From Candidatus Falkowbacteria bacterium (GTDB lineage: Bacteria > Patescibacteriota > Patescibacteriia > Patescibacteriales > UBA12075), in the NCBI GenBank assembly GCA_003514005.1, contig DOSJ01000010.1, positions 39,425 through 103,424 on the forward strand: a stretch of DNA of 64,000 bases, read 5' to 3'. The notes under the pieces were generated by a model. That model was not told where the DNA came from, searched no databases, and saw only the letters and a program-made list of their open reading frames with translations. Made by a program: the position numbers and the translations under genes. Below are positions 2,099-61,611 of this stretch, piece by piece. Position 1 is the first letter of the stretch. Each line of letters starts with the position of its first letter.

Positions 2099-3580
<1,482 letters not shown>

Positions 3581-4048: not shown

Positions 4049-4122
<74 letters not shown>

Positions 4123-4128
4123 CAGAAT

Positions 4129-4197
4129 AATTTATGATTTTAGATTTAGGATTTATGAAATATTTATATCATATATCCTAAATCCAAAATCATAAAT
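4129..4197. repeat. AT-rich inverted repeat filling the tRNA-Ile / tRNA-fMet spacer
   Basis: Arms TTTATGATTTTAGATTTAGGAT and ATCCTAAATCCAAAATCATAAA face each other. Confidence 0.6.
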
Positions 4198-4202
4198 ATC
4201 AT

Positions 4203-4275
4203 AGCGGGGTAGAGCAGTTGGCAGCTCGCCAGGCCCATAACCTGGAGGCCGTCGGTTCGAATCCGACCCCCGCAA
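4203..4275 (+). tRNA. Initiator tRNA-Met (anticodon CAT)
   Basis: Aligns arm by arm with E. coli tRNA-fMet (GCGGGG-T-GAGC...GCTC...CATAA...GTCGGTTCGAATCCGAC-CCCCGCAA). Position 1:72 is an unpaired A:A. No encoded CCA. Confidence 0.8.
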
Positions 4276-4281
4276 CAAATT

Positions 4282-4356
4282 CAATTAAAAATTAAGAATT
4301 AAAAATTAAGAATTAATTGCTCGAATTATTAATTCTTAATTTTTAATTCTTAATTG
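4282..4356. repeat. AT-rich inverted repeat filling the tRNA-fMet / tRNA-Phe spacer
   Basis: Arms built from AATTAAAAATTAAGAATT words and their complement, around a central GCTCGAATTATT. Confidence 0.6.
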
Positions 4357-4368
4357 ATAATTGACGGC

Positions 4369-4440
4369 GCCTCGGTAGCTCAGTGGTAGAGCATGCGACT
4401 GAAAATCGCAGTGTCGTCAGTTCAATTCTGACCCGGGGCA
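4369..4440 (+). tRNA. tRNA-Phe (anticodon GAA)
   Basis: Acceptor GCCTCGG/CCGGGGC, D arm GCTCAGTGGTAGAGC, anticodon stem-loop TGCGA-CTGAAAA-TCGCA, T arm GTCAGTTCAATTCTGAC. Confidence 0.9.
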
Positions 4441-4520
4441 CAAGGAGTTTTCGATTGACGATTTTCGATTTACGAATGTTGAAATATCAATAAATCGGAA
4501 ATCGGAAATCGTAAATTACC

Positions 4521-4591
4521 CGGGGTGTCGTATACCGGTAGTACGCATGGTTTGGGACCATGTTGACTGGGTTCAATTCCCAGCACCCCGA
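4521..4591 (+). tRNA. tRNA-Pro (anticodon TGG)
   Basis: Acceptor CGGGGTG/CACCCCG, anticodon stem-loop CATGG-TTTGGGA-CCATG, T arm CTGGGTTCAATTCCCAG. Confidence 0.85.
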
Positions 4592-4599
4592 CAGACAAT

Positions 4600-4730
4600 A
4601 ATTTTCAATTTTAAATTTTAAATTTTTAAACAATTTTAAATGATTTAATTTTCAATGCTTTAAATAAAAAAAATTAATCATTAAAAATTTTCTCATTCAT
4701 TAAAAATTTAAAATTAAAAATTAAAAATTC
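4600..4730. repeat. AT-rich inverted repeat in the tRNA-Pro / tRNA-Gly spacer
   Basis: AATTTTCAATTTTAAATTTTAAATTTTTAA at the left is roughly complementary to TTAAAAATTTAAAATTAAAAATTAAAAATT at the right. Confidence 0.45.
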
Positions 4731-4736
4731 TCCTCT

Positions 4737-4809
4737 GCGGGTATAGTATAGTGGCTTTTTATGCTAGCCTTCCAAGCTGGAGAGACGGGTTCGATTCCCG
4801 TTACCCGCT
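4737..4809 (+). tRNA. tRNA-Gly (anticodon TCC)
   Basis: Acceptor GCGGGTA/TACCCGC, anticodon stem-loop CTAGC-CTTCCAA-GCTGG, T arm ACGGGTTCGATTCCCGT. Confidence 0.85.
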
Positions 4810-7046: not shown

Positions 7047-7183
7047 TGTCATTCCCGCGAAGGCGGGAATCTCGGTAATAAAGTAAGTAAACAAGAAGTA
7101 TAAAAAATGTTTTTATAAAAAATTTTACAGAAAAATTATTTTGTTATTTTAACACCAAGATTCCCGCCTTCGCGGGAATGACA
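7047..7183. mobile_element. MITE-like element, copy 1 (TGTCATTCCCGCGAAGGCGGGAATC terminal inverted repeats)
   Basis: Left end TGTCATTCCCGCGAAGGCGGGAATCTCGG, right end CCAAGATTCCCGCCTTCGCGGGAATGACA. 137 bp, lying between infB and rbfA. Confidence 0.75.
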
Positions 7184-11591: not shown

Positions 11592-11729
11592 TGTCATTCC
11601 CGCGAAAGCGGGAATCTTGGTTTTAAAACAACGAGATACTTCTTTAGTAAAATTGATATAAAAACACCTTATAAATTTATTTGTTTATTTATTTTTTTTA
11701 CCGAGATTCCCGCCTACGCGGGAATGACA
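11592..11729. mobile_element. MITE-like element, copy 2
   Basis: TGTCATTCCCGCGAAAGCGGGAATCTTGG ... CCGAGATTCCCGCCTACGCGGGAATGACA, 138 bp. Track ORF 11529-11741 is a spurious translation of it. Confidence 0.75.
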
Positions 11730-14504: not shown

Positions 14505-16160
14505 TTATTTTAATTTCTTTTCCATATAAGTTTCATGCAATCGATAGCCTAATTTTCGATAATAACCGCGCACCCCTACCCCTGATATTATTTTTAATAT
14601 ATCATAATTTTCATTTTTTGCAATCTCCTCCGCCTCCCCCAACAATATCTTCCCCAACCCCGCATGCTGAACCTTTTTCTCGCCCCCAACCGAAACCAGC
14701 TCGCCATAAACATGCAGCTCACGAACAATCGCCAACCCCTCATCAACCAATCGCAACCGACAAAATCCCAATAGTTTATCTTCCTTTGAAACTGCTTGAA
14801 TAAAATACTCCTTACCGCCTGAAGCATTATAATTAATAATATTAAATCGAAAATCGAAAATCGAAAATCGAAAATCACCAACTTCCCTACACCGAATACA
14901 CCGACAAACAACCCCCTCATCTTGCATCACCTGCCGCAAATTTGTTATCTTATTCCCAGCAACAATCGATTCACCTGGAATATCCCGAATCAAACGAATA
15001 ATACGAACATATTCCGGCGTTATTTTTTTACACTTAATAATCAACTCACGCAATTGTTTATCTGTATATGGTTTATACTTCCCTTGTTTCCACCAATGAT
15101 AAAGCAAAGAGCCCTTGGTGACAACACAAGGATAAAACTTTATCTGATCCGGCTGAAAACGCTCATCGGTAAAAAGTTGCCGATACATCTTGAAATCACG
15201 CGCCGGCGTTGACCCTGGCAATCCAGGCATTATATGATAAGTAACCTTAAATCCATAATTTTTTAATAAAGCAGTCGCATCCGCGATTTCCTTTACCCCA
15301 TGCCCGCGCTTATTCAGCTTCAAAATCTTATCATCAAGGTGCTGCACCCCAAGCTCCACCCGCGTACACCCAAACGTACGCATCTGTAACAACTCTTCAT
15401 CACAAATATAATCCGGCCGCGTCTCAAGAGTCAAACCAATAATCTGATATTTAGTATTTTCATTCTTCTTCTGTTCTTTTATTAATAAATTTTTTAATTC
15501 TCCTCTTGTCATTCCCGCGAAGGCGGGAATCTTGGTTATAGGCGAAATGGCTTTTTTTTCACCAAGATTCCCGCCTTCGCGGGAATGACAAAATTGGTTT
15601 GCGGCCGCAAAAAGATTCAACACATACCAATACTTATACTTCTCCGGCAAATAAGACCACGTCCCCCCGATAACAATCAACTCAATCTTCGTCGGCTCAT
15701 GCCCATTATTAATCAAAGCCCGCAAACGATCTTGGACTTGAACAAACGGATTATAACCACAACGTATCGCCCGCATCACCGCTGGCTCATTCGAAAGATA
15801 GCTCTGCGGCACGTCTTTTTCAGTTGGGCAATACGCGCATTTTCCCGGGCAAGGATAAGGCTTGGTTAAAACCGCAACCGGCGCGATACCCGACATAGTC
15901 CGCACCGCACGCTTTCGCAAAAGTTTTTTTAATAAGGGGTTCAACCCCTGCGCCAGGGTTTGAACCCCTTTTATAATCTCCGCATTACTAAAAATATCCA
16001 ATCCATACTTCTTGGCTATTTTACGTTTTACAAGCATTAAATCTTTACTGTCAGCAATTTTAGCAGACAACAATTCTTTAATAGCTTCTTCAATTTTTTC
16101 ATTAATATCTTTCATAATACTTTCTAGCACTAGATTAACACTCAGAAAATCATTAGTCAA
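14505..16160 (-). CDS. Elp3-like radical SAM / GNAT acetyltransferase (tRNA U34 modification family)
   Basis: 551 aa. Elp3-type radical-SAM cysteine motif CPGKCAYCP followed by PQSYLSNEPAVMRA, and a C-terminal GNAT region QHAGLGKILLGEAEEIA. The start may instead be the ATG at 16115 (MKDINEK). Confidence 0.75.
   Translation of the reverse strand: MTNDFLSVNLVLESIMKDINEKIEEAIKELLSAKIADSKDLMLVKRKIAKKYGLDIFSNAEIIKGVQTLAQGLNPLLKKLLRKRAVRTMSGIAPVAVLTKPYPCPGKCAYCPTEKDVPQSYLSNEPAVMRAIRCGYNPFVQVQDRLRALINNGHEPTKIELIVIGGTWSYLPEKYKYWYVLNLFAAANQFCHSREGGNLGEKKAISPITKIPAFAGMTRGELKNLLIKEQKKNENTKYQIIGLTLETRPDYICDEELLQMRTFGCTRVELGVQHLDDKILKLNKRGHGVKEIADATALLKNYGFKVTYHIMPGLPGSTPARDFKMYRQLFTDERFQPDQIKFYPCVVTKGSLLYHWWKQGKYKPYTDKQLRELIIKCKKITPEYVRIIRLIRDIPGESIVAGNKITNLRQVMQDEGVVCRCIRCREVGDFRFSIFDFRFNIINYNASGGKEYFIQAVSKEDKLLGFCRLRLVDEGLAIVRELHVYGELVSVGGEKKVQHAGLGKILLGEAEEIAKNENYDILKIISGVGVRGYYRKLGYRLHETYMEKKLK
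14844..14876. repeat. 7-nt tandem array (AAATCGA x4.7) inside the Elp3-like CDS
   Basis: AAATCGA repeats at 14844, 14851, 14858 and 14865, plus a partial unit. It encodes DFRFSIFDFRF. The same array occurs at 23113-23143. Confidence 0.85.
15507..15590. mobile_element. MITE-like element, copy 3 (84 bp, in frame inside the Elp3-like CDS)
   Basis: TGTCATTCCCGCGAAGGCGGGAATCTTGG ... CCAAGATTCCCGCCTTCGCGGGAATGACA. It is 84 bp (28 codons) and is translated as ..CHSREGGNLGEKKAISPITKIPAFAGMTRG.. Confidence 0.8.
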
Positions 16161-23065: not shown

Positions 23066-23070
23066 TTCAT

Positions 23071-23143
23071 CGAATGTCGAATGTCGAATGTCGAATGTCG
23101 ATTTAAAGTTTTAAATCGAAAATCGAAAATCGAAAATCGAAAA
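23071..23143. repeat. Two facing 7-nt tandem arrays (CGAATGT x4 and AAATCGA x4) filling the rpmI-rplT spacer
   Basis: CGAATGT units at 23071-23098 and AAATCGA units at 23113-23140. The two arrays are partly complementary and form an imperfect hairpin abutting the rplT start codon. Confidence 0.8.
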
Positions 23144-23341
23144 TTAATTATACGGCATTAATTTCTTAATGGTTTTTTTGATTGTTTTGTCAGTATCAAT
23201 ATCGCGGCGCTTATTGCGCTTGGTATTGCCAGTTTCACGAGCATTATAGTGATCCTGCCCGGCTTTTCTCTGCTTAATCTTATTATTTTTGGTAATAACA
23301 AATCTTTTTGCAGTAGCTTTATGAGTCTTTACTTTTGGCAT
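23144..23341 (-). CDS. rpmI: 50S ribosomal protein L35
   Basis: MPKVKTHKATAKRF... starts at the internal ATG at 23341. The 11-codon extension in the track is not L35-like. Confidence 0.9.
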   Translation of the reverse strand: MPKVKTHKATAKRFVITKNNKIKQRKAGQDHYNARETGNTKRNKRRDIDTDKTIKKTIKKLMPYN

Positions 23342-24114: not shown

Positions 24115-24306
24115 AAATTGAGACTTGAGAAAAGTTTTTTTTCTGTCATTCCCGCGCAGGCGGGAATCTTGGTTAAAAAATCACTTAACATTTTATAATA
24201 ACGTTGGCTAAAAAATCTTTAGCTCAAAAATCAGTTTTTCTTTTTTTTAAACCGAGATTCCCGCCTGCGCGGGAATGACAAGAGTTTTTTTCTCAAGTCT
24301 CAAATT
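24115..24306. mobile_element. MITE-like element, copy 4 (137-bp core 24144-24280 plus outer inverted repeat)
   Basis: The core has the TGTCATTCCCGCGCAGGCGGGAATC ends, and its internal sequence is nearly identical to copy 7 (52930-53065). The outer arms are AAATTGAGACTTGAGAAAA / TTTTCTCAAGTCTCAAATT. Confidence 0.75.
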
Positions 24307-38677: not shown

Positions 38678-38749
38678 TGTCATTCCCGCGAAGGCGGGAA
38701 TCCAGATTCGATTGATAAACCCTGGATTCCCGCCTTCGCGGGAATGACA
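38678..38749. mobile_element. MITE-like element, copy 5 (short, 72 bp)
   Basis: TGTCATTCCCGCGAAGGCGGGAATCCAG ... CTGGATTCCCGCCTTCGCGGGAATGACA. An outer inverted repeat TGAGACCTGAGAAA / TTTCTCAAGTTTCA flanks it. Track ORF 38576-38776 is spurious. Confidence 0.75.
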
Positions 38750-43016: not shown

Positions 43017-46000
43017 TTAGATATTTTTATAATATTTTTCCGGTCCCATGGTTTTTAAAAGTATCATTTGCAATTGTTCGTGATTAATTTCTCCATTTAA
43101 AGTAAACAAGTCCTCAATCCGCGTCTTGCTTTCGCCATTTGCCAAGATGTGGCTGGAAAATAATTGACCCATCGAAGAAACCATACAGCCTTCAGGCGCC
43201 AAATTAATGCAAAGGTCATATCCTTCCTTGGCTTTTATACTTATCTCACCAAGATAAGCCGGCAATTCTCCTTGCGGCTTGGCCGTTGCCAATACTGCTC
43301 GCGATTCTCCTAAAATACTTTTCATGTCATACGGCAAACGTAAGCTAGCTGCTTTATATAATGGCTTGGCTAAAACGCGCCTAATTCCTTTTTCCAAAAA
43401 ACGAAGCTTGGCAATTTGCACTTTTTCAATCAATCTTTTGCTGATTTTCGGTTCATAATTGTTTTTCTCTCTCATTTCAGTCATCCGATAATTCAAAATC
43501 AGTTCTAAGTAAAGCCATAACGGAGAATATTCGGCCTGAAACGAAGAAAACCCGATCGCGTCCACCAAACCATAAAAAACATCTTCAACTTGCGCCGCTT
43601 TGATATATGCTTCGCCGTCCAAAAAAATCTTGGTACGGCCTTTTTTGTTTTTGGCTTGAGTCGTCTGCCAGCGTTTGGAAAAATCTGACAAGACTTGGCG
43701 CAAACCATTATTGTTATAAAGCCCAAACGCGAAAAATTTATAAACTGCTCCGACAAAAAGCGAGATGCGGCTGATTTTTTCTGAAATGCGCAAGGCATTT
43801 GTTGTTGGTTTTGTTCTGTCTTCCAATACTTGATTAATCTTTTTTTTCAAGTCTAAATACTCCTGATAAAATAATTTAAACTGTTTATAATCAGCGCAGT
43901 CTGCACCGAATTTTAAGAACAGAAAATGCAGTACGCCTTGCAAAACCAAACCTTGGAATGACTGAACCAAAACCCACTCCGGAACGCCGATATTATAGTT
44001 CTCTTTTTCATGGCCGGCCAAAAGCTTAATCTGATAATCAAGCGACCGGTCAAAATTCGCTCCACAGGCTGAACATTCATGTTTCTTGTTCAAAAGAAAT
44101 TTGTGCATTTCAAAATACTGTCCTTGCCGACAGGGACCTGTGCCTTTGTTATCAAATACCAAAATCCGGCTTTTGTCTTTCACAAGCGGATCATTCGCTT
44201 TTTTTCTTTTGACAAAATCTTCTTCTGCCAAAAAAATATCGGCAAATACCGCGGCCAAAGGCGCGCAAACCGAATCGCCGGCATATTTGCGGCCCAAGCG
44301 CACTTTTTGCTCCAAATCATATTCGCCGTCAAGAAAATTATCAATCACGCTTATGCCGGCGCCGCGAAAAACGCTCGTGAGCATCCGATTATCTTGCAAT
44401 GTCGGAAAATAGATGACATCGGTTTCAGGATTCAATTTTTGCGCGTCATAATCATCGATTATTTTTATTTCAAAATTATTTCCCGAAAAAGTTTGGTGCA
44501 ACTTTTTTTCCAGCTGATTGATATAAGTATTCACCCGATTTTCCAAATGAGCCAGCTCCTTGATCATCGCGTCCGACTGGATGAACAGACTGGGGATTTT
44601 TTTTGTGATCTCGGCGATAAGCGGTGAAATGACAGCATCCGGTCCGCAACGGAAAGTCGATACCTGCACCAATGATATCAAACGACTGTCTTTAATCTGT
44701 TCAAATTTTCGAACTATATTTTGCAAGCGCTCATGTTTTAATATTTCCGAAAGCCGGTTGTTGGCAATCACGTTTATCTTGCTTACCAAGTCATGCGGAT
44801 TGCGCCAATAAATGTGGGCAAAATCCGCATCCAATTTTGCCTCAAAAGCATAAGCCGGAATCGCGATGGATCTTTTGTCTTTTATCAGCTTGCCGATATG
44901 ACTGTCATAAATTCCCGGATTAAGGATGTATTCTCTTCCGCAGACGATGGTTATACTGCGCTTTTCCTTCCAACAAAGCTCCAGCGCAAGAGCGGTAATA
45001 TCGGCTACGCTGTCTTTGATTTTTTGATTCTGTCCGTTTGCAAACGCGACTGCTTCGGCTATTCTTTTTTCAGAAGCCTTTATATTGTAAAATCGAAATA
45101 CTTTTTGCAATTTCCGTTTTAGCTGGTTAGCCAGATATTCTGGATCATAGCTCTTTATGCTTAAATCAAAAAGATGGATATTGCTTTGCGGATAACGGGC
45201 CTTGGCAAACCTTTCCGCAACCGCGATTCCGCCCTGGTTAGTGGTGCAAGTCCGGCCCAGACTTTTGCCTTCTGTCGGTAAAAAATCAATCTGCGGAGCA
45301 AGGATAATGCCATGTTCTTCTCCGGCCAAACGGATGAACTGCCCGACCGCGCCGATCAAAGGCGCGCAAACATCGATATCAAACAAGCCTTGAGCGCTGA
45401 GTATGTCTTGCTCCCGCACATTGTCAACGCAAACCGGAATGTCAAGATTTTCAAAAATCTGTGATAAAAAATAAGCCTGCTCCGATACCGCGAAACTGCG
45501 GGGAATAACCAAGCGTTTTTTGTCCATGCTCTTAGGCATCTGCTGATCAATAAATTTCCAGATATCGCCGTACACATCGCTTATTCCGCTTTCGGTCTTG
45601 TCCCCATAAGCAAGTTCGTTTACGCTTGAACAGCCGCCCAGCAATACCGTAAGCTTGTTATCCGAGTTTTGCGACGTAAGCAAAGTGCGCGCACAGCAAG
45701 CATTCTTGTCGCCACAAGCTACGCCATAGCAGTTAATTATCTTTTTTTCAAATTGCAAATCCAAAAAATCATCCAAGTCACAAACGTTTTCCACGATCTC
45801 TTTTTTGGCAATAGACTCGATCAATCCGATACAGGCCCTATGTCCCGGAAACGGCGGCACCAAAGAAAACATTTCTCCGTCATCCAAAAGCCGACGGGTC
45901 GCGGCCAAGGGCAACGGATCAGAAAGCATTGTCTGTCCGTGCAAAAGCACAACCGCGTTTTTGGGAAAATCGATCTGGTTCCAAAGCGTGCGCGCCATAT

Positions 46001-47669
46001 TCTCGATGATTGCGTAATTACATGATGCCAAAATCTCGTCCTGCGGATAGCCCATTGCTTGCATCTTCTTAGCATTTTCCATTAAAAAAACCGCACAAGT
46101 CGCGTTTATCTCATACGCCTTTGGCGCGTTAAAAGATCGCAAACAAGCCTCGCCGATGCTTTCAATGCCGAACAAAGCCTTGAGCGTATCCATCAAACTG
46201 CCGGTTCCGGCCGAACATTTGATATTCATCGCGTTATCAAATAGCTCCTCTTTTTCCAGAGAAATAGTCGATACTTTCGTGTCTTCGCCGCCGATATCAA
46301 CCAAAACGCAAAACTTGCGGTTTATTTCAGGAAAGCGGCTTTGCAAATCATTAATATGTTTTTTCGCATAAGCGATTGAACCGTGCGCGTGCGCATAATT
46401 TTCTACCAAAACAAAAATATTTATTCCTGATTTCTGATAAATCTTTTGCAATATACTCTGTACCTGATATCGGCCACTGCCGGTAATCCCTATGTTCTGG
46501 ATATTAAGGCTTTTTACCCCTTTCTTTTTAATATCCAAAAAAATCTGCTTTACAGTCTCAATCGTATCGCCATGATTGTCATAAGACCCTTTAAAAATAA
46601 TTCTTCCGTCGATCGCGTCCGCAATCAATATTTTTGCCATTGTCGAGCCAATATCTAGTCCGATGTTTATCGGCATTGTTTCCAATTCATGGCCGATAAC
46701 CTCGGCTATTTCCGAGTCTGGCAGTCTTTTATAATAGCCTTTCTCAATAAAATCGGTTTTCAAACTTTGAAAACCGGGATATTCCAAAAACTTTTCCGCT
46801 TTGCTTAAGCGCCGGTCTTCTTGCTTACGAAAATTTTCCCAGCCGATTTCATTTACCAGACTCGAAACACCTCGCAAAAGCATATCCTGTTCATTATCAT
46901 AAATAATTTCTTTTACTCCGGCTTGCAAAAGAAAATCTTTTGCGCAATCGCGTAAAAATTGCCAAGCAAAAACACGTCCACAAAGATGCACGATCTCAAT
47001 ATTTTCCGGCATCCGGCGGCAAACCTTCATTGCTTCGGATTTTAGCGTTATCGCCAAAGCATATGCCAAGGGCACGCCCTGATTCTTATCGGAAATAGTA
47101 GCCGAGGAACTAAATACTCCGCATCTGTCTGCTCGAACCTGAACATGGCTTCTTTTTTCCTTGCCTTGTTCACCCAAATATTCACAAAGTATTTCATCTA
47201 CTTCTTCATACTGAATATCCAGCTTCTGCAAAATTCGGCTGATATTAATTCCGCTTCCGGCGCCACAACGCGGATTCGCAAGCAAAAGATCGTCTATAAG
47301 CTCCCCCTTCTGATCAACGGCAACCAGCATATAACCGGATGCGGACAAATCAATAATTCCCAAAGACTTGCAATCATGCGCCCTTGCTTCTTTCATCAGA
47401 TGCTTCGCCTCCGCCCACAGGGCGGCGGAACTTAAAATTATTTCTCCATGTCCCAAAGTTTCCCTGACAATATTTGCCAGCTTACCACTAATATATATGT
47501 CATTATTTTTATTTTTCAAAACATCCAAAATCTGAAACTGCAAAAACAGCTTTTCAATCCGGTCATTATTCGGAATAAGCAAATCCCGCTTCTCCACCCC
47601 ATCCCAAATGCGCACATGAATATTCGCAATTCCAGCATCGATTATTATTTGTAATTTTTTTTCTAACAT
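43017..47669 (-). CDS. Giant fused activase/dehydratase-like protein (two HgdC/BcrAD-BadFG-type ATPase domains plus a ~900-aa CoA-enzyme-activase-associated region)
   Basis: The second ATPase domain has DIGSTMAK, VDIGGEDTK, KCSAGTG and TCAVF. The first has IIIDAG, IIDLSASG, RCGAGSG and RCGVFSS. The start is moved to the ATG at 47669 because codons 1-35 of the track ORF derive from repeat sequence. Confidence 0.7.
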   Translation of the reverse strand: MLEKKLQIIIDAGIANIHVRIWDGVEKRDLLIPNNDRIEKLFLQFQILDVLKNKNNDIYISGKLANIVRETLGHGEIILSSAALWAEAKHLMKEARAHDCKSLGIIDLSASGYMLVAVDQKGELIDDLLLANPRCGAGSGINISRILQKLDIQYEEVDEILCEYLGEQGKEKRSHVQVRADRCGVFSSSATISDKNQGVPLAYALAITLKSEAMKVCRRMPENIEIVHLCGRVFAWQFLRDCAKDFLLQAGVKEIIYDNEQDMLLRGVSSLVNEIGWENFRKQEDRRLSKAEKFLEYPGFQSLKTDFIEKGYYKRLPDSEIAEVIGHELETMPINIGLDIGSTMAKILIADAIDGRIIFKGSYDNHGDTIETVKQIFLDIKKKGVKSLNIQNIGITGSGRYQVQSILQKIYQKSGINIFVLVENYAHAHGSIAYAKKHINDLQSRFPEINRKFCVLVDIGGEDTKVSTISLEKEELFDNAMNIKCSAGTGSLMDTLKALFGIESIGEACLRSFNAPKAYEINATCAVFLMENAKKMQAMGYPQDEILASCNYAIIENMARTLWNQIDFPKNAVVLLHGQTMLSDPLPLAATRRLLDDGEMFSLVPPFPGHRACIGLIESIAKKEIVENVCDLDDFLDLQFEKKIINCYGVACGDKNACCARTLLTSQNSDNKLTVLLGGCSSVNELAYGDKTESGISDVYGDIWKFIDQQMPKSMDKKRLVIPRSFAVSEQAYFLSQIFENLDIPVCVDNVREQDILSAQGLFDIDVCAPLIGAVGQFIRLAGEEHGIILAPQIDFLPTEGKSLGRTCTTNQGGIAVAERFAKARYPQSNIHLFDLSIKSYDPEYLANQLKRKLQKVFRFYNIKASEKRIAEAVAFANGQNQKIKDSVADITALALELCWKEKRSITIVCGREYILNPGIYDSHIGKLIKDKRSIAIPAYAFEAKLDADFAHIYWRNPHDLVSKINVIANNRLSEILKHERLQNIVRKFEQIKDSRLISLVQVSTFRCGPDAVISPLIAEITKKIPSLFIQSDAMIKELAHLENRVNTYINQLEKKLHQTFSGNNFEIKIIDDYDAQKLNPETDVIYFPTLQDNRMLTSVFRGAGISVIDNFLDGEYDLEQKVRLGRKYAGDSVCAPLAAVFADIFLAEEDFVKRKKANDPLVKDKSRILVFDNKGTGPCRQGQYFEMHKFLLNKKHECSACGANFDRSLDYQIKLLAGHEKENYNIGVPEWVLVQSFQGLVLQGVLHFLFLKFGADCADYKQFKLFYQEYLDLKKKINQVLEDRTKPTTNALRISEKISRISLFVGAVYKFFAFGLYNNNGLRQVLSDFSKRWQTTQAKNKKGRTKIFLDGEAYIKAAQVEDVFYGLVDAIGFSSFQAEYSPLWLYLELILNYRMTEMREKNNYEPKISKRLIEKVQIAKLRFLEKGIRRVLAKPLYKAASLRLPYDMKSILGESRAVLATAKPQGELPAYLGEISIKAKEGYDLCINLAPEGCMVSSMGQLFSSHILANGESKTRIEDLFTLNGEINHEQLQMILLKTMGPEKYYKNI

Positions 47670-47768
47670 TAACTCATTTATATTAAAATATATTTTGTGA
47701 CTTAGGCCAAAAATGAATGGTTCTTTCGGCAATTCTGTGGACAAATTTTTAAACACTTTTCCTCTACT

Positions 47769-47799
47769 TGTCATTCCCGCGTAGGCGGGAATCTTGGTT
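47769..47799. mobile_element. Solo terminal repeat of the MITE-like family (copy 6, half element)
   Basis: TGTCATTCCCGCGTAGGCGGGAATCTTGGTT has no partner end nearby. A fragment of the 188-bp element end (GACTTAGGCCAAAAAT) lies next to it at 47700-47716. Confidence 0.65.
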
Positions 47800-52929: not shown

Positions 52930-53065
52930 TGTCATTCCCGCGTAGGCGGGAATCTTGATTAAAAAATTACTTAATATTTTTTAATACTGTTGGCTAAAAA
53001 ATCTCTAACTTAAAAATTAGTTTTTCTTTTTTTAAACCGAGATTCCCGCCTACGCGGGAATGACA
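52930..53065. mobile_element. MITE-like element, copy 7
   Basis: TGTCATTCCCGCGTAGGCGGGAATCTTG ... CCGAGATTCCCGCCTACGCGGGAATGACA. Its internal sequence is about 85-90% identical by eye to copy 4. Confidence 0.75.
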
Positions 53066-61460: not shown

Positions 61461-61611
61461 TGTCATTCCCGACACTCCTTGCCCCCGGCAGGGAATAGAT
61501 ATTAAATGATCGGGAATCCAGGGATAATAGATTCAAATATCTTAACAAGTTAGCCTAATTTAAAACATTAAGTGCTTTTCCTACTGGATTCCCGCCTTCG
61601 CGGGAATGACA
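61461..61611. mobile_element. MITE-like element, copy 8 (degenerate left end)
   Basis: TGTCATTCCCGACACTCC... at the left and TGGATTCCCGCCTTCGCGGGAATGACA at the right. Confidence 0.6.

Follow-up and report, generated by a model that had tools for sequence, protein, structure and literature searches.

The window analysed here is a 64,000-nucleotide stretch of contig DOSJ01000010.1 (assembly GCA_003514005.1) from Candidatus Falkowbacteria bacterium, a member of the candidate phyla radiation (CPR, or Patescibacteria), and it carries on its minus strand a full-length gene for Elp3 (14505–16160), the radical-SAM and GNAT enzyme of tRNA U34 modification. The open reading frame (ORF) encodes 551 amino acids and matched TIGR01211 with 538 bits (cutoff 350) over model positions 3–522 of 522, as well as the Pfam models Radical_SAM, Radical_SAM_C, GNAT and ELP3_N; all residues that are invariant in the family alignment are kept, and the neighbouring PGM/PMM and SHMT genes are those found next to its orthologues. 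Within this gene lies an 84-bp segment (15507–15590, minus strand) with two perfect 25-nt inverted arms, TGTCATTCCCGCGAAGGCGGGAATC...GATTCCCGCCTTCGCGGGAATGACA, which the ORF reads without a stop as ..NQF CHSREGGNLGEKKAISPITKIPAFAGMT RGE.., CHSREGGNLGEKKAISPITKIPAFAGMT being residues 191–218, and conserved Elp3 sequence continues on either side. A preliminary description had presented it as an in-frame, stop-free element of 28 codons between conserved Elp3 halves; the arms, the copy count and the translation bear out the former statement, and the full-length TIGR01211 match the latter. By its sequence anatomy the segment is an inverted dimer of hairpin units of the repetitive extragenic palindromic (REP) family CGTC-1, and our favoured explanation is that this dimer is tolerated and translated in a permissive Elp3 linker.

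Anatomy, copies and family identity of the repeat

Arm 1 (15507–15531, plus strand) consists of a TGTC tag, the stem ATTCCCGC, a GAAG loop, the complementary stem GCGGGAAT and a final C, and arm 2 (15566–15590, minus strand) is its exact reverse complement, again with a GAAG loop, which makes the element a homodimer. The 34-nt spacer between them (15532–15565) was found in the Elp3 copy alone, and its ends, TTGGT and ACCAAG, lengthen the inverted repeat to a stem of 33 bp. Two of the six frames of the element are open, and the Elp3 gene reads one of these two. Folding predicts for the element in the Elp3 mRNA a 33-bp stem without mismatches (-64.5 kcal/mol, z = -12), a hairpin that by its predicted length could be a substrate of RNase III or an obstacle to translation. 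The arms pair at 33 of 33 positions, compared with at most 21 in other orthologues and about 10–14 in control segments; from this complete pairing we conclude that the Elp3 copy in the window is a young insertion.

A search with the 25-mer, allowing up to three mismatches, gave 14 matches in the window and none in 100 dinucleotide-preserving shuffles. Each arm is a hairpin of the same build: TGTC, present at the start of all 14 units, the 8-bp stem, a 4-nt loop (GAAG, GAAA, GTAG or GCAG) and a short tail, which is CCA in the units at 38678/38749 and 61611, whereas the Elp3 copy and the remaining units have CTT or CTC. In total the window contains seven inverted dimers, one of them with an interrupted second arm, and one solitary unit. 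In the six intact dimers the spacers measure 22, 34 or about 86–88 nt, and five of the six are homodimers, although the loops vary from dimer to dimer. The arms are conserved across dimers, whereas the spacers are unrelated except between the copies at 24144 and 52930. No consistent direct repeat that could represent a target-site duplication was present at the seven window copies, a T-rich 9-mer occurring at the 24144 copy only. Conserved arms, unrelated spacers, matching loops and the lack of a consistent target-site duplication together indicate the anatomy of a REP dimer and not that of a classical miniature inverted-repeat transposable element (MITE). The label of miniature inverted-repeat element, used in the preliminary description, thus holds as far as a repeated palindrome is meant, and it was dropped in the sense of a classical MITE.

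This anatomy agrees with the superfamily of CGTC-tagged REPs, with tag variants TGTC and CCTC, described by Di Nocera, De Gregorio and Rocco (2013; PMC3733652). Its family CGTC-1, in which TGTC is a frequent form of the tag, has stems of 8 bp with AT at the start, loops of 4 nt and a short unpaired 3' tail of consensus CCA, occurs mostly as inverted dimers with spacers of 20–100 bp, predominantly homodimers, and is equated there with dRS3 of Neisseria and with RPE-6 (RPE, Rickettsia palindromic element) of R. conorii; occasional intragenic CGTC dimers encode 20–30 residues. The window repeat shares with CGTC-1 the one-sided TGTC tag, the AT-initial 8-bp stem, the 4-nt loop and the short tail (CCA in two copies), and likewise its dispersal, the prevalence of inverted homodimers, spacers in the same range and an intragenic dimer of 28 residues. 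It differs in its host, since CPR/Patescibacteria lie outside the five phyla of PMC3733652, and in the CTT or CTC tail of most copies.

The units also resemble the Neisseria Transformation Sequence (NTS), CGTCATTCCCGCGMAVGCGGGAATCYRG, which contains dRS3 (PMC11893778). They agree with this consensus at 26–27 of 28 positions, that is, with one or two mismatches, where that study allowed one; the Elp3 arms have two (first C to T, and R to T) and the units at 38678, 38749 and 61611 have one. According to the same study, the GIY-YIG nuclease SsnA binds and cuts NTS only as single-stranded DNA and in one orientation, and related motifs flank ssn genes (single-domain GIY-YIG, cd10448) in many bacteria in an NTS-ssn-NTS arrangement. 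A comparable association was observed for the repeat analysed here: in locus L033 a unit flanks a 97-residue GIY-YIG ORF, an Ssn homologue, whose relatives adjoin the 25-mer in seven loci, and in two CPR loci small GIY-YIG ORFs lie 1–2 kb from the 25-mer.

Species-representative genomes of more than 15 phyla contain the exact 25-mer (TGTCATTCCCGCGAAGGCGGGAATC) in at least 119 stretches, against a chance expectation that we estimate at about 0.001. The carriers include isolates of Massilia, Polaromonas, Flavobacterium and Desulfosarcina, Rickettsia and Tisiphia endosymbionts, and many CPR groups. One 25-mer common to so many phyla implies either frequent inter-phylum transfer of repeat and enzyme or strong constraint by a conserved binding protein. 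Among 137 exact units in the fetched loci, in-frame copies were found in a class-I tRNA synthetase gene (IleRS-like) of a Rickettsia endosymbiont, as a full dimer read CHSREGGNP...LDSRLRGND, in a P-type ATPase gene of a Magasanikiibacteriota metagenome-assembled genome, and in MurD and TruB genes. In-frame reading is thus a general phenomenon that already included CPR. As a separate observation, in-frame units recur in tRNA-handling enzymes, namely TruB, IleRS-like and Elp3 (L012 1252–2295(-), L024 859–4269(-) and the window gene), in parallel with literature reports for TruB, tRNA synthetases and QueA; the reason for this recurrence may simply be that such proteins are large and conserved and have permissive loops.

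All window copies other than that in Elp3 lie between ORFs. Dimers of 137 bp are located at 7047–7183 (loops GAAG/GAAG) and at 24144–24280 (GCAG/GCAG, with a spacer akin to that of the 52930 copy), a heterodimer of 138 bp at 11592–11729 (GAAA/GTAG), and a dimer of 136 bp at 52930–53065 (GTAG/GTAG). A short dimer of 72 bp with the tail CCAG and one mismatch to the NTS consensus is located at 38678–38749, and the dimer at 61461–61611 has its second arm interrupted by about 40 nt (ATCATTTAATATCTATTCCCTGCCGGGGGCAAGGAGTGT) within the hairpin loop. The solitary unit (47769–47793, plus strand) overlaps the annotated start of a 1585-residue ORF (43017–47774, minus strand), its terminal ATGACA providing the annotated ATG; a likelier start of this ORF is a GTG 12 nt downstream, preceded by AGAGGA. 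A AAGAGGAG-like sequence resembling a Shine-Dalgarno motif follows several of the copies. Rfam models at gathering thresholds matched only rRNA and tRNAs in the window and none of the repeat copies; after a complete 16S rRNA gene (2099–3580) come six clustered tRNA genes (4049–4809), with no adjacent 23S gene in the window.

The Elp3 linker and its insertions

Alignment with Dehalococcoides Elp3 (5l7j) paired residues 83–189 of the query with 2–108 and residues 228–550 with 116–458, which leaves a linker of about 7 residues in the Dehalococcoides protein and 38 in the query. We compared this linker in about 200 CPR orthologues (120 protein homologues of at most 71% identity and 82 loci with DNA), where it measures 9–49 residues and has no family-wide conserved sequence, certain clades having conserved versions of their own of 16 or 30 residues. 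Since the element directly borders the conserved ANQF at one end and RGELKNLL at the other, the element is the linker, and without it about two residues would remain. The claim that the element adds a net 28 residues to the enzyme did not survive this comparison, because element-free orthologues have 9–49 unrelated residues at the same spot. Taken literally, these are the element-free orthologues with an equivalent segment that the preliminary description had named as grounds for doubting an insertion; the segment in the window is still a copy of the repeat.

The linker lies between helix alpha2 and the next helix and strand beta3 of the radical-SAM domain. In the AlphaFold model (mean predicted local distance difference test score, pLDDT, 72.7) a strand at 158–163 and a helix at 173–188 are followed by a coil at 189–218, a helix at 219–233 and a strand at 239–247, and pLDDT falls below 50 at 193–210. 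Alignment with homologues places the insertion in a variable linker that is predicted to be coil. In the (beta/alpha) barrel topology, alpha-to-beta connections lie on the face opposite the cluster and S-adenosylmethionine (SAM) site. The modelled loop would accordingly be solvent-exposed on the barrel face away from the Fe-S/SAM site, and the encoded peptide is predicted to occupy a non-core, exposed region, as in RPEs.

Tagged repeats were found in the same linker in about ten other orthologues. Three syntenic orthologues (L001, L002 and L003) contain a TGTCAT...ATGACA dimer that is degenerate and belongs to another stem family, no more than two codons from the same position and translated VIL...RMT, and tagged dimers occupy the linker in 4 of 78 unbiased loci (L128, L132, L135 and L142). 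The orthologue in L204 carries the exact window 25-mer as a single unit read in a different frame (LSFPRRRESR), three codons past ANDF; an exact 25-mer in two Elp3 genes that are about 35% divergent is not a neutral relic. In L145 (about 1391–1473 of the Elp3 gene) and L169 (about 1374–1521), TGTC-tagged inverted dimers stand in frame in a third variable region, the GNAT-domain loop between CRLRL and RELHVYG, and hence the linker that the element fills is not the sole insertion site. A neighbour-joining tree of the sequence outside the linker showed the bearers scattered, each with element-free relatives at 85–92% identity; the DNA of filled and empty linkers of close orthologue pairs was not alignable. 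A single clade-specific insertion as the origin of the tagged elements was rejected on account of this scatter, and we conclude that about ten independent insertions took place in Elp3.

Heptanucleotide arrays were observed in the same gene. A perfect (GATTTTC)x4.7 array (14844–14876) lies in the Elp3 ORF of the window, in the stretch that separates the CxCIRCRE motif from the GNAT domain, and encodes GDFRFSIFDFRFN; the rpmI-rplT spacer contains GATTTTC x4.6 (23070–23101) and (TCGAATG)x4.6 (23113–23144). The gain or loss of one unit within Elp3 would put the gene out of frame. We surveyed 82 Elp3 genes (loci L124–L203 and L001–L003) for perfect tandem repeats of at least three copies with periods of 4 to 12, and found 22 cases of period 7, six of period 4, one of period 8 and none of the remaining periods. 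Twenty of the 22 heptamer arrays were in the two variable linkers, and Elp3, which makes up about 16% of 809 kb, holds about 23 of 31 heptamer arrays. The units vary by lineage, and L140 has an identical unit in both linkers. No orthologue frameshifted (OFF) at a heptamer array was present among the 82, two apparent failures being motif variants.

Weighing the explanations

As a whole, the reading of the segment as a CGTC-1 REP dimer that is tolerated and translated in a permissive Elp3 linker has, in our judgement, a probability of about 0.72. In this explanation a short, stop-free copy of a dispersed, non-autonomous repeat (14 units per 64 kb), with a length that is a multiple of three, would have landed in or replaced the hypervariable linker; the ribosome would read through it and thereby produce a disordered loop of 28 residues, and the enzyme would most likely still be functional because the linker tolerates almost any sequence of 9–49 residues. 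The units may spread by a single-strand hairpin mechanism with the help of an Ssn-type GIY-YIG nuclease whose gene would lie in another part of the genome, and old copies may stay in Elp3 since the linker needs a spacer, whereas intergenic copies would get deleted. The gene is intact, the frame of the element is open and similar inserts have persisted for long in orthologues, all of which speaks for a loop that is tolerated and translated; the Elp3 protein is probably made and active. Between tolerance and silent inactivation, which the preliminary description had offered as alternatives, the intact ORF and the variable linker speak for the former and against the latter.

Several observations weigh against this explanation. 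No Elp3 relative more than 80% identical to that of the window was found that could serve as a true empty site and define where the insertion begins and ends and whether it is flanked by a target duplication. Neither a motif regular expression nor tblastn with three probes revealed an Ssn or other GIY-YIG gene in the 64-kb window, and the authors of PMC3733652 found no dedicated transposase for CGTC repeats, which they report as not linked to RAYT genes. The mRNA hairpin of -64.5 kcal/mol could hinder Elp3 expression. Finally, 690 kb of unbiased CPR loci contained six tagged dimers above a moderate threshold, three of which were in Elp3, about 18% of this DNA; this share is higher than simple tolerance predicts unless a retention bias is invoked. 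We favour such a bias, in which an element that has replaced the linker serves as a spacer and is shielded from deletion, while intergenic copies are lost in streamlined genomes.

The same share is an argument for a different explanation, in which the Elp3 linker is actively targeted, through AT-rich heptamer arrays or local hairpins, or the insert is kept by selection because of a function, either regulation of Elp3 (RNase III or translation control) or marking for Ssn-dependent recombination control. About ten independent insertions from two or more tagged families within the same few codons of some 200 orthologues, the enrichment of heptamer arrays in the same linker, the very strong mRNA hairpin and the same-locus pattern known for RPE-4/6/7 (PMC3767692) are all consistent with it. 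However, close relatives are element-free with unrelated linkers, older copies decay freely (arms down to 11–19 of 22 matches, peptides unconserved), the GNAT loop also receives insertions, and no target motif was definable from the linker alignments and the copy flanks; moreover, retention bias in a length-constrained linker can account for the enrichment of old, degenerate copies. We therefore consider targeting or selected function unlikely. The more specific proposal that hypermutability or targeting marks both variable linkers of CPR Elp3, with REP units and 7-nt arrays being repeatedly directed to them or generated there, appears quite improbable; if it were true, lineages could remodel a wobble-modification enzyme, or switch it on and off by slippage of one unit, possibly coupled to an Ssn-type nuclease acting on single-stranded DNA.

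A functional impairment of the gene without visible decay, in which the insertion is recent and its 33-bp RNA hairpin or the foreign loop cripples expression or activity, seems very unlikely to us. Perfect arms mark a young copy, as this would require, and the predicted hairpin (z = -12) is of the kind that might cause it, but the ORF is intact with every family-invariant residue, the linker length is inside the natural range, and a length divisible by three with the use of one of only two open frames is what is expected after selection. Orthologues, furthermore, kept comparable in-frame elements until their arms had diverged, with the rest of the gene conserved.

It is highly improbable that all tagged elements go back to one ancient event, an insertion into the ancestral CPR Elp3 that diverged in most lineages and was refreshed here by gene conversion. 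All of them lie within a few codons and end in ATGACA read M-T in the same frame, and the authors of the R. japonica study prefer a common origin for the analogous RPE-4/6/7 pattern (PMC3767692); yet the bearers are scattered among relatives of 85–92% identity without a trace of an element, the elements belong to two or more different stem families, tags of six nucleotides do not suffice to drive conversion, and exact 25-mers in two genes as divergent as those described above cannot be neutral relics. An assembly artefact, with reads joined or collapsed at a repeat whose arms recur elsewhere in the genome and an in-frame 84-bp form that is not real, is hardly credible even for a contig from one metagenome assembly, because the two flanks belong to a single Elp3 gene whose synteny is conserved (PGM/PMM, SHMT), the 34-nt spacer is unique and hence does not stem from another copy, a read is longer than the identical arms, and comparable elements are read in frame in many assemblies made independently.

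Relation to known palindromic repeats

In-frame palindromes of the REP and RPE type are known already; new are the CPR host, the Elp3 gene, the link to the NTS/Ssn system and the repeated use of one linker. Our literature search gave no paper in which CPR are connected with REP, MITE or palindromic elements. Protein-coding palindromes, so far described mainly from Rickettsia and a few Proteobacteria, now reach the ultra-small CPR/Patescibacteria, here in a tiny bacterium of groundwater, as well as Elp3, and are tied to the recently characterised NTS/Ssn system, although no new kind of system is revealed. The roughly 200 orthologues, with 9–49 residues at one site, form a natural map of insertion tolerance in Elp3 that can be used in engineering and in reading Elp3 structures, and the fossil series of insertions at this site could help in dating REP families of uncultivated bacteria and in comparing them.

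Among known systems, bacterial MITEs (Correia/NEMIS, RUP, Nezha) are likewise short, non-coding and multi-copy, with terminal inverted repeats and possible long RNA hairpins; the window repeat differs in having neither a consistent target-site duplication nor a conserved interior, and its arm is an autonomous hairpin that also occurs alone. With REPIN/RAYT systems it shares inverted doublets of tagged hairpins, singletons as their remnants, and a proposed driver that is a small enzyme acting on single-stranded DNA and encoded between repeats, but the tag is TGTC/CGTC instead of GTAG and the enzyme is a GIY-YIG nuclease instead of an HUH tyrosine transposase. To our knowledge, mobility has never been shown for the GIY-YIG-associated repeats. 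Neisseria dRS3/NTS has the same stem and tag sequence as the window units, whereas the latter begin with T instead of C and have the tail TTG or TCG in most copies; NTS is rarely intragenic in Neisseria (2%), and the window has the Elp3 copy within a gene.

A close counterpart in coding sequence is provided by RPE-4/6/7 (Ogata et al.; PMC3767692), in-frame palindromes in conserved genes that are read through, with listed cases of 84–90 bp. In that study different groups occupy one locus in orthologues, share the motif ATGAC and lie at solvent-exposed positions, and a hot spot and a common origin are debated as the cause; the ATGAC motif, the exposed position (predicted for Elp3) and the presence of different groups at one locus recur in the Elp3 linker. 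The RPE families are defined within Rickettsia, and the connection to RPE-6 consists in the equation of CGTC-1 with RPE-6 and dRS3 (PMC3733652) and in the identical 25-mer read in frame in the IleRS-like gene of the Rickettsia endosymbiont. On these two grounds the resemblance to Rickettsia palindromic elements, already suggested in the preliminary description, gains support, and it probably reflects kinship.

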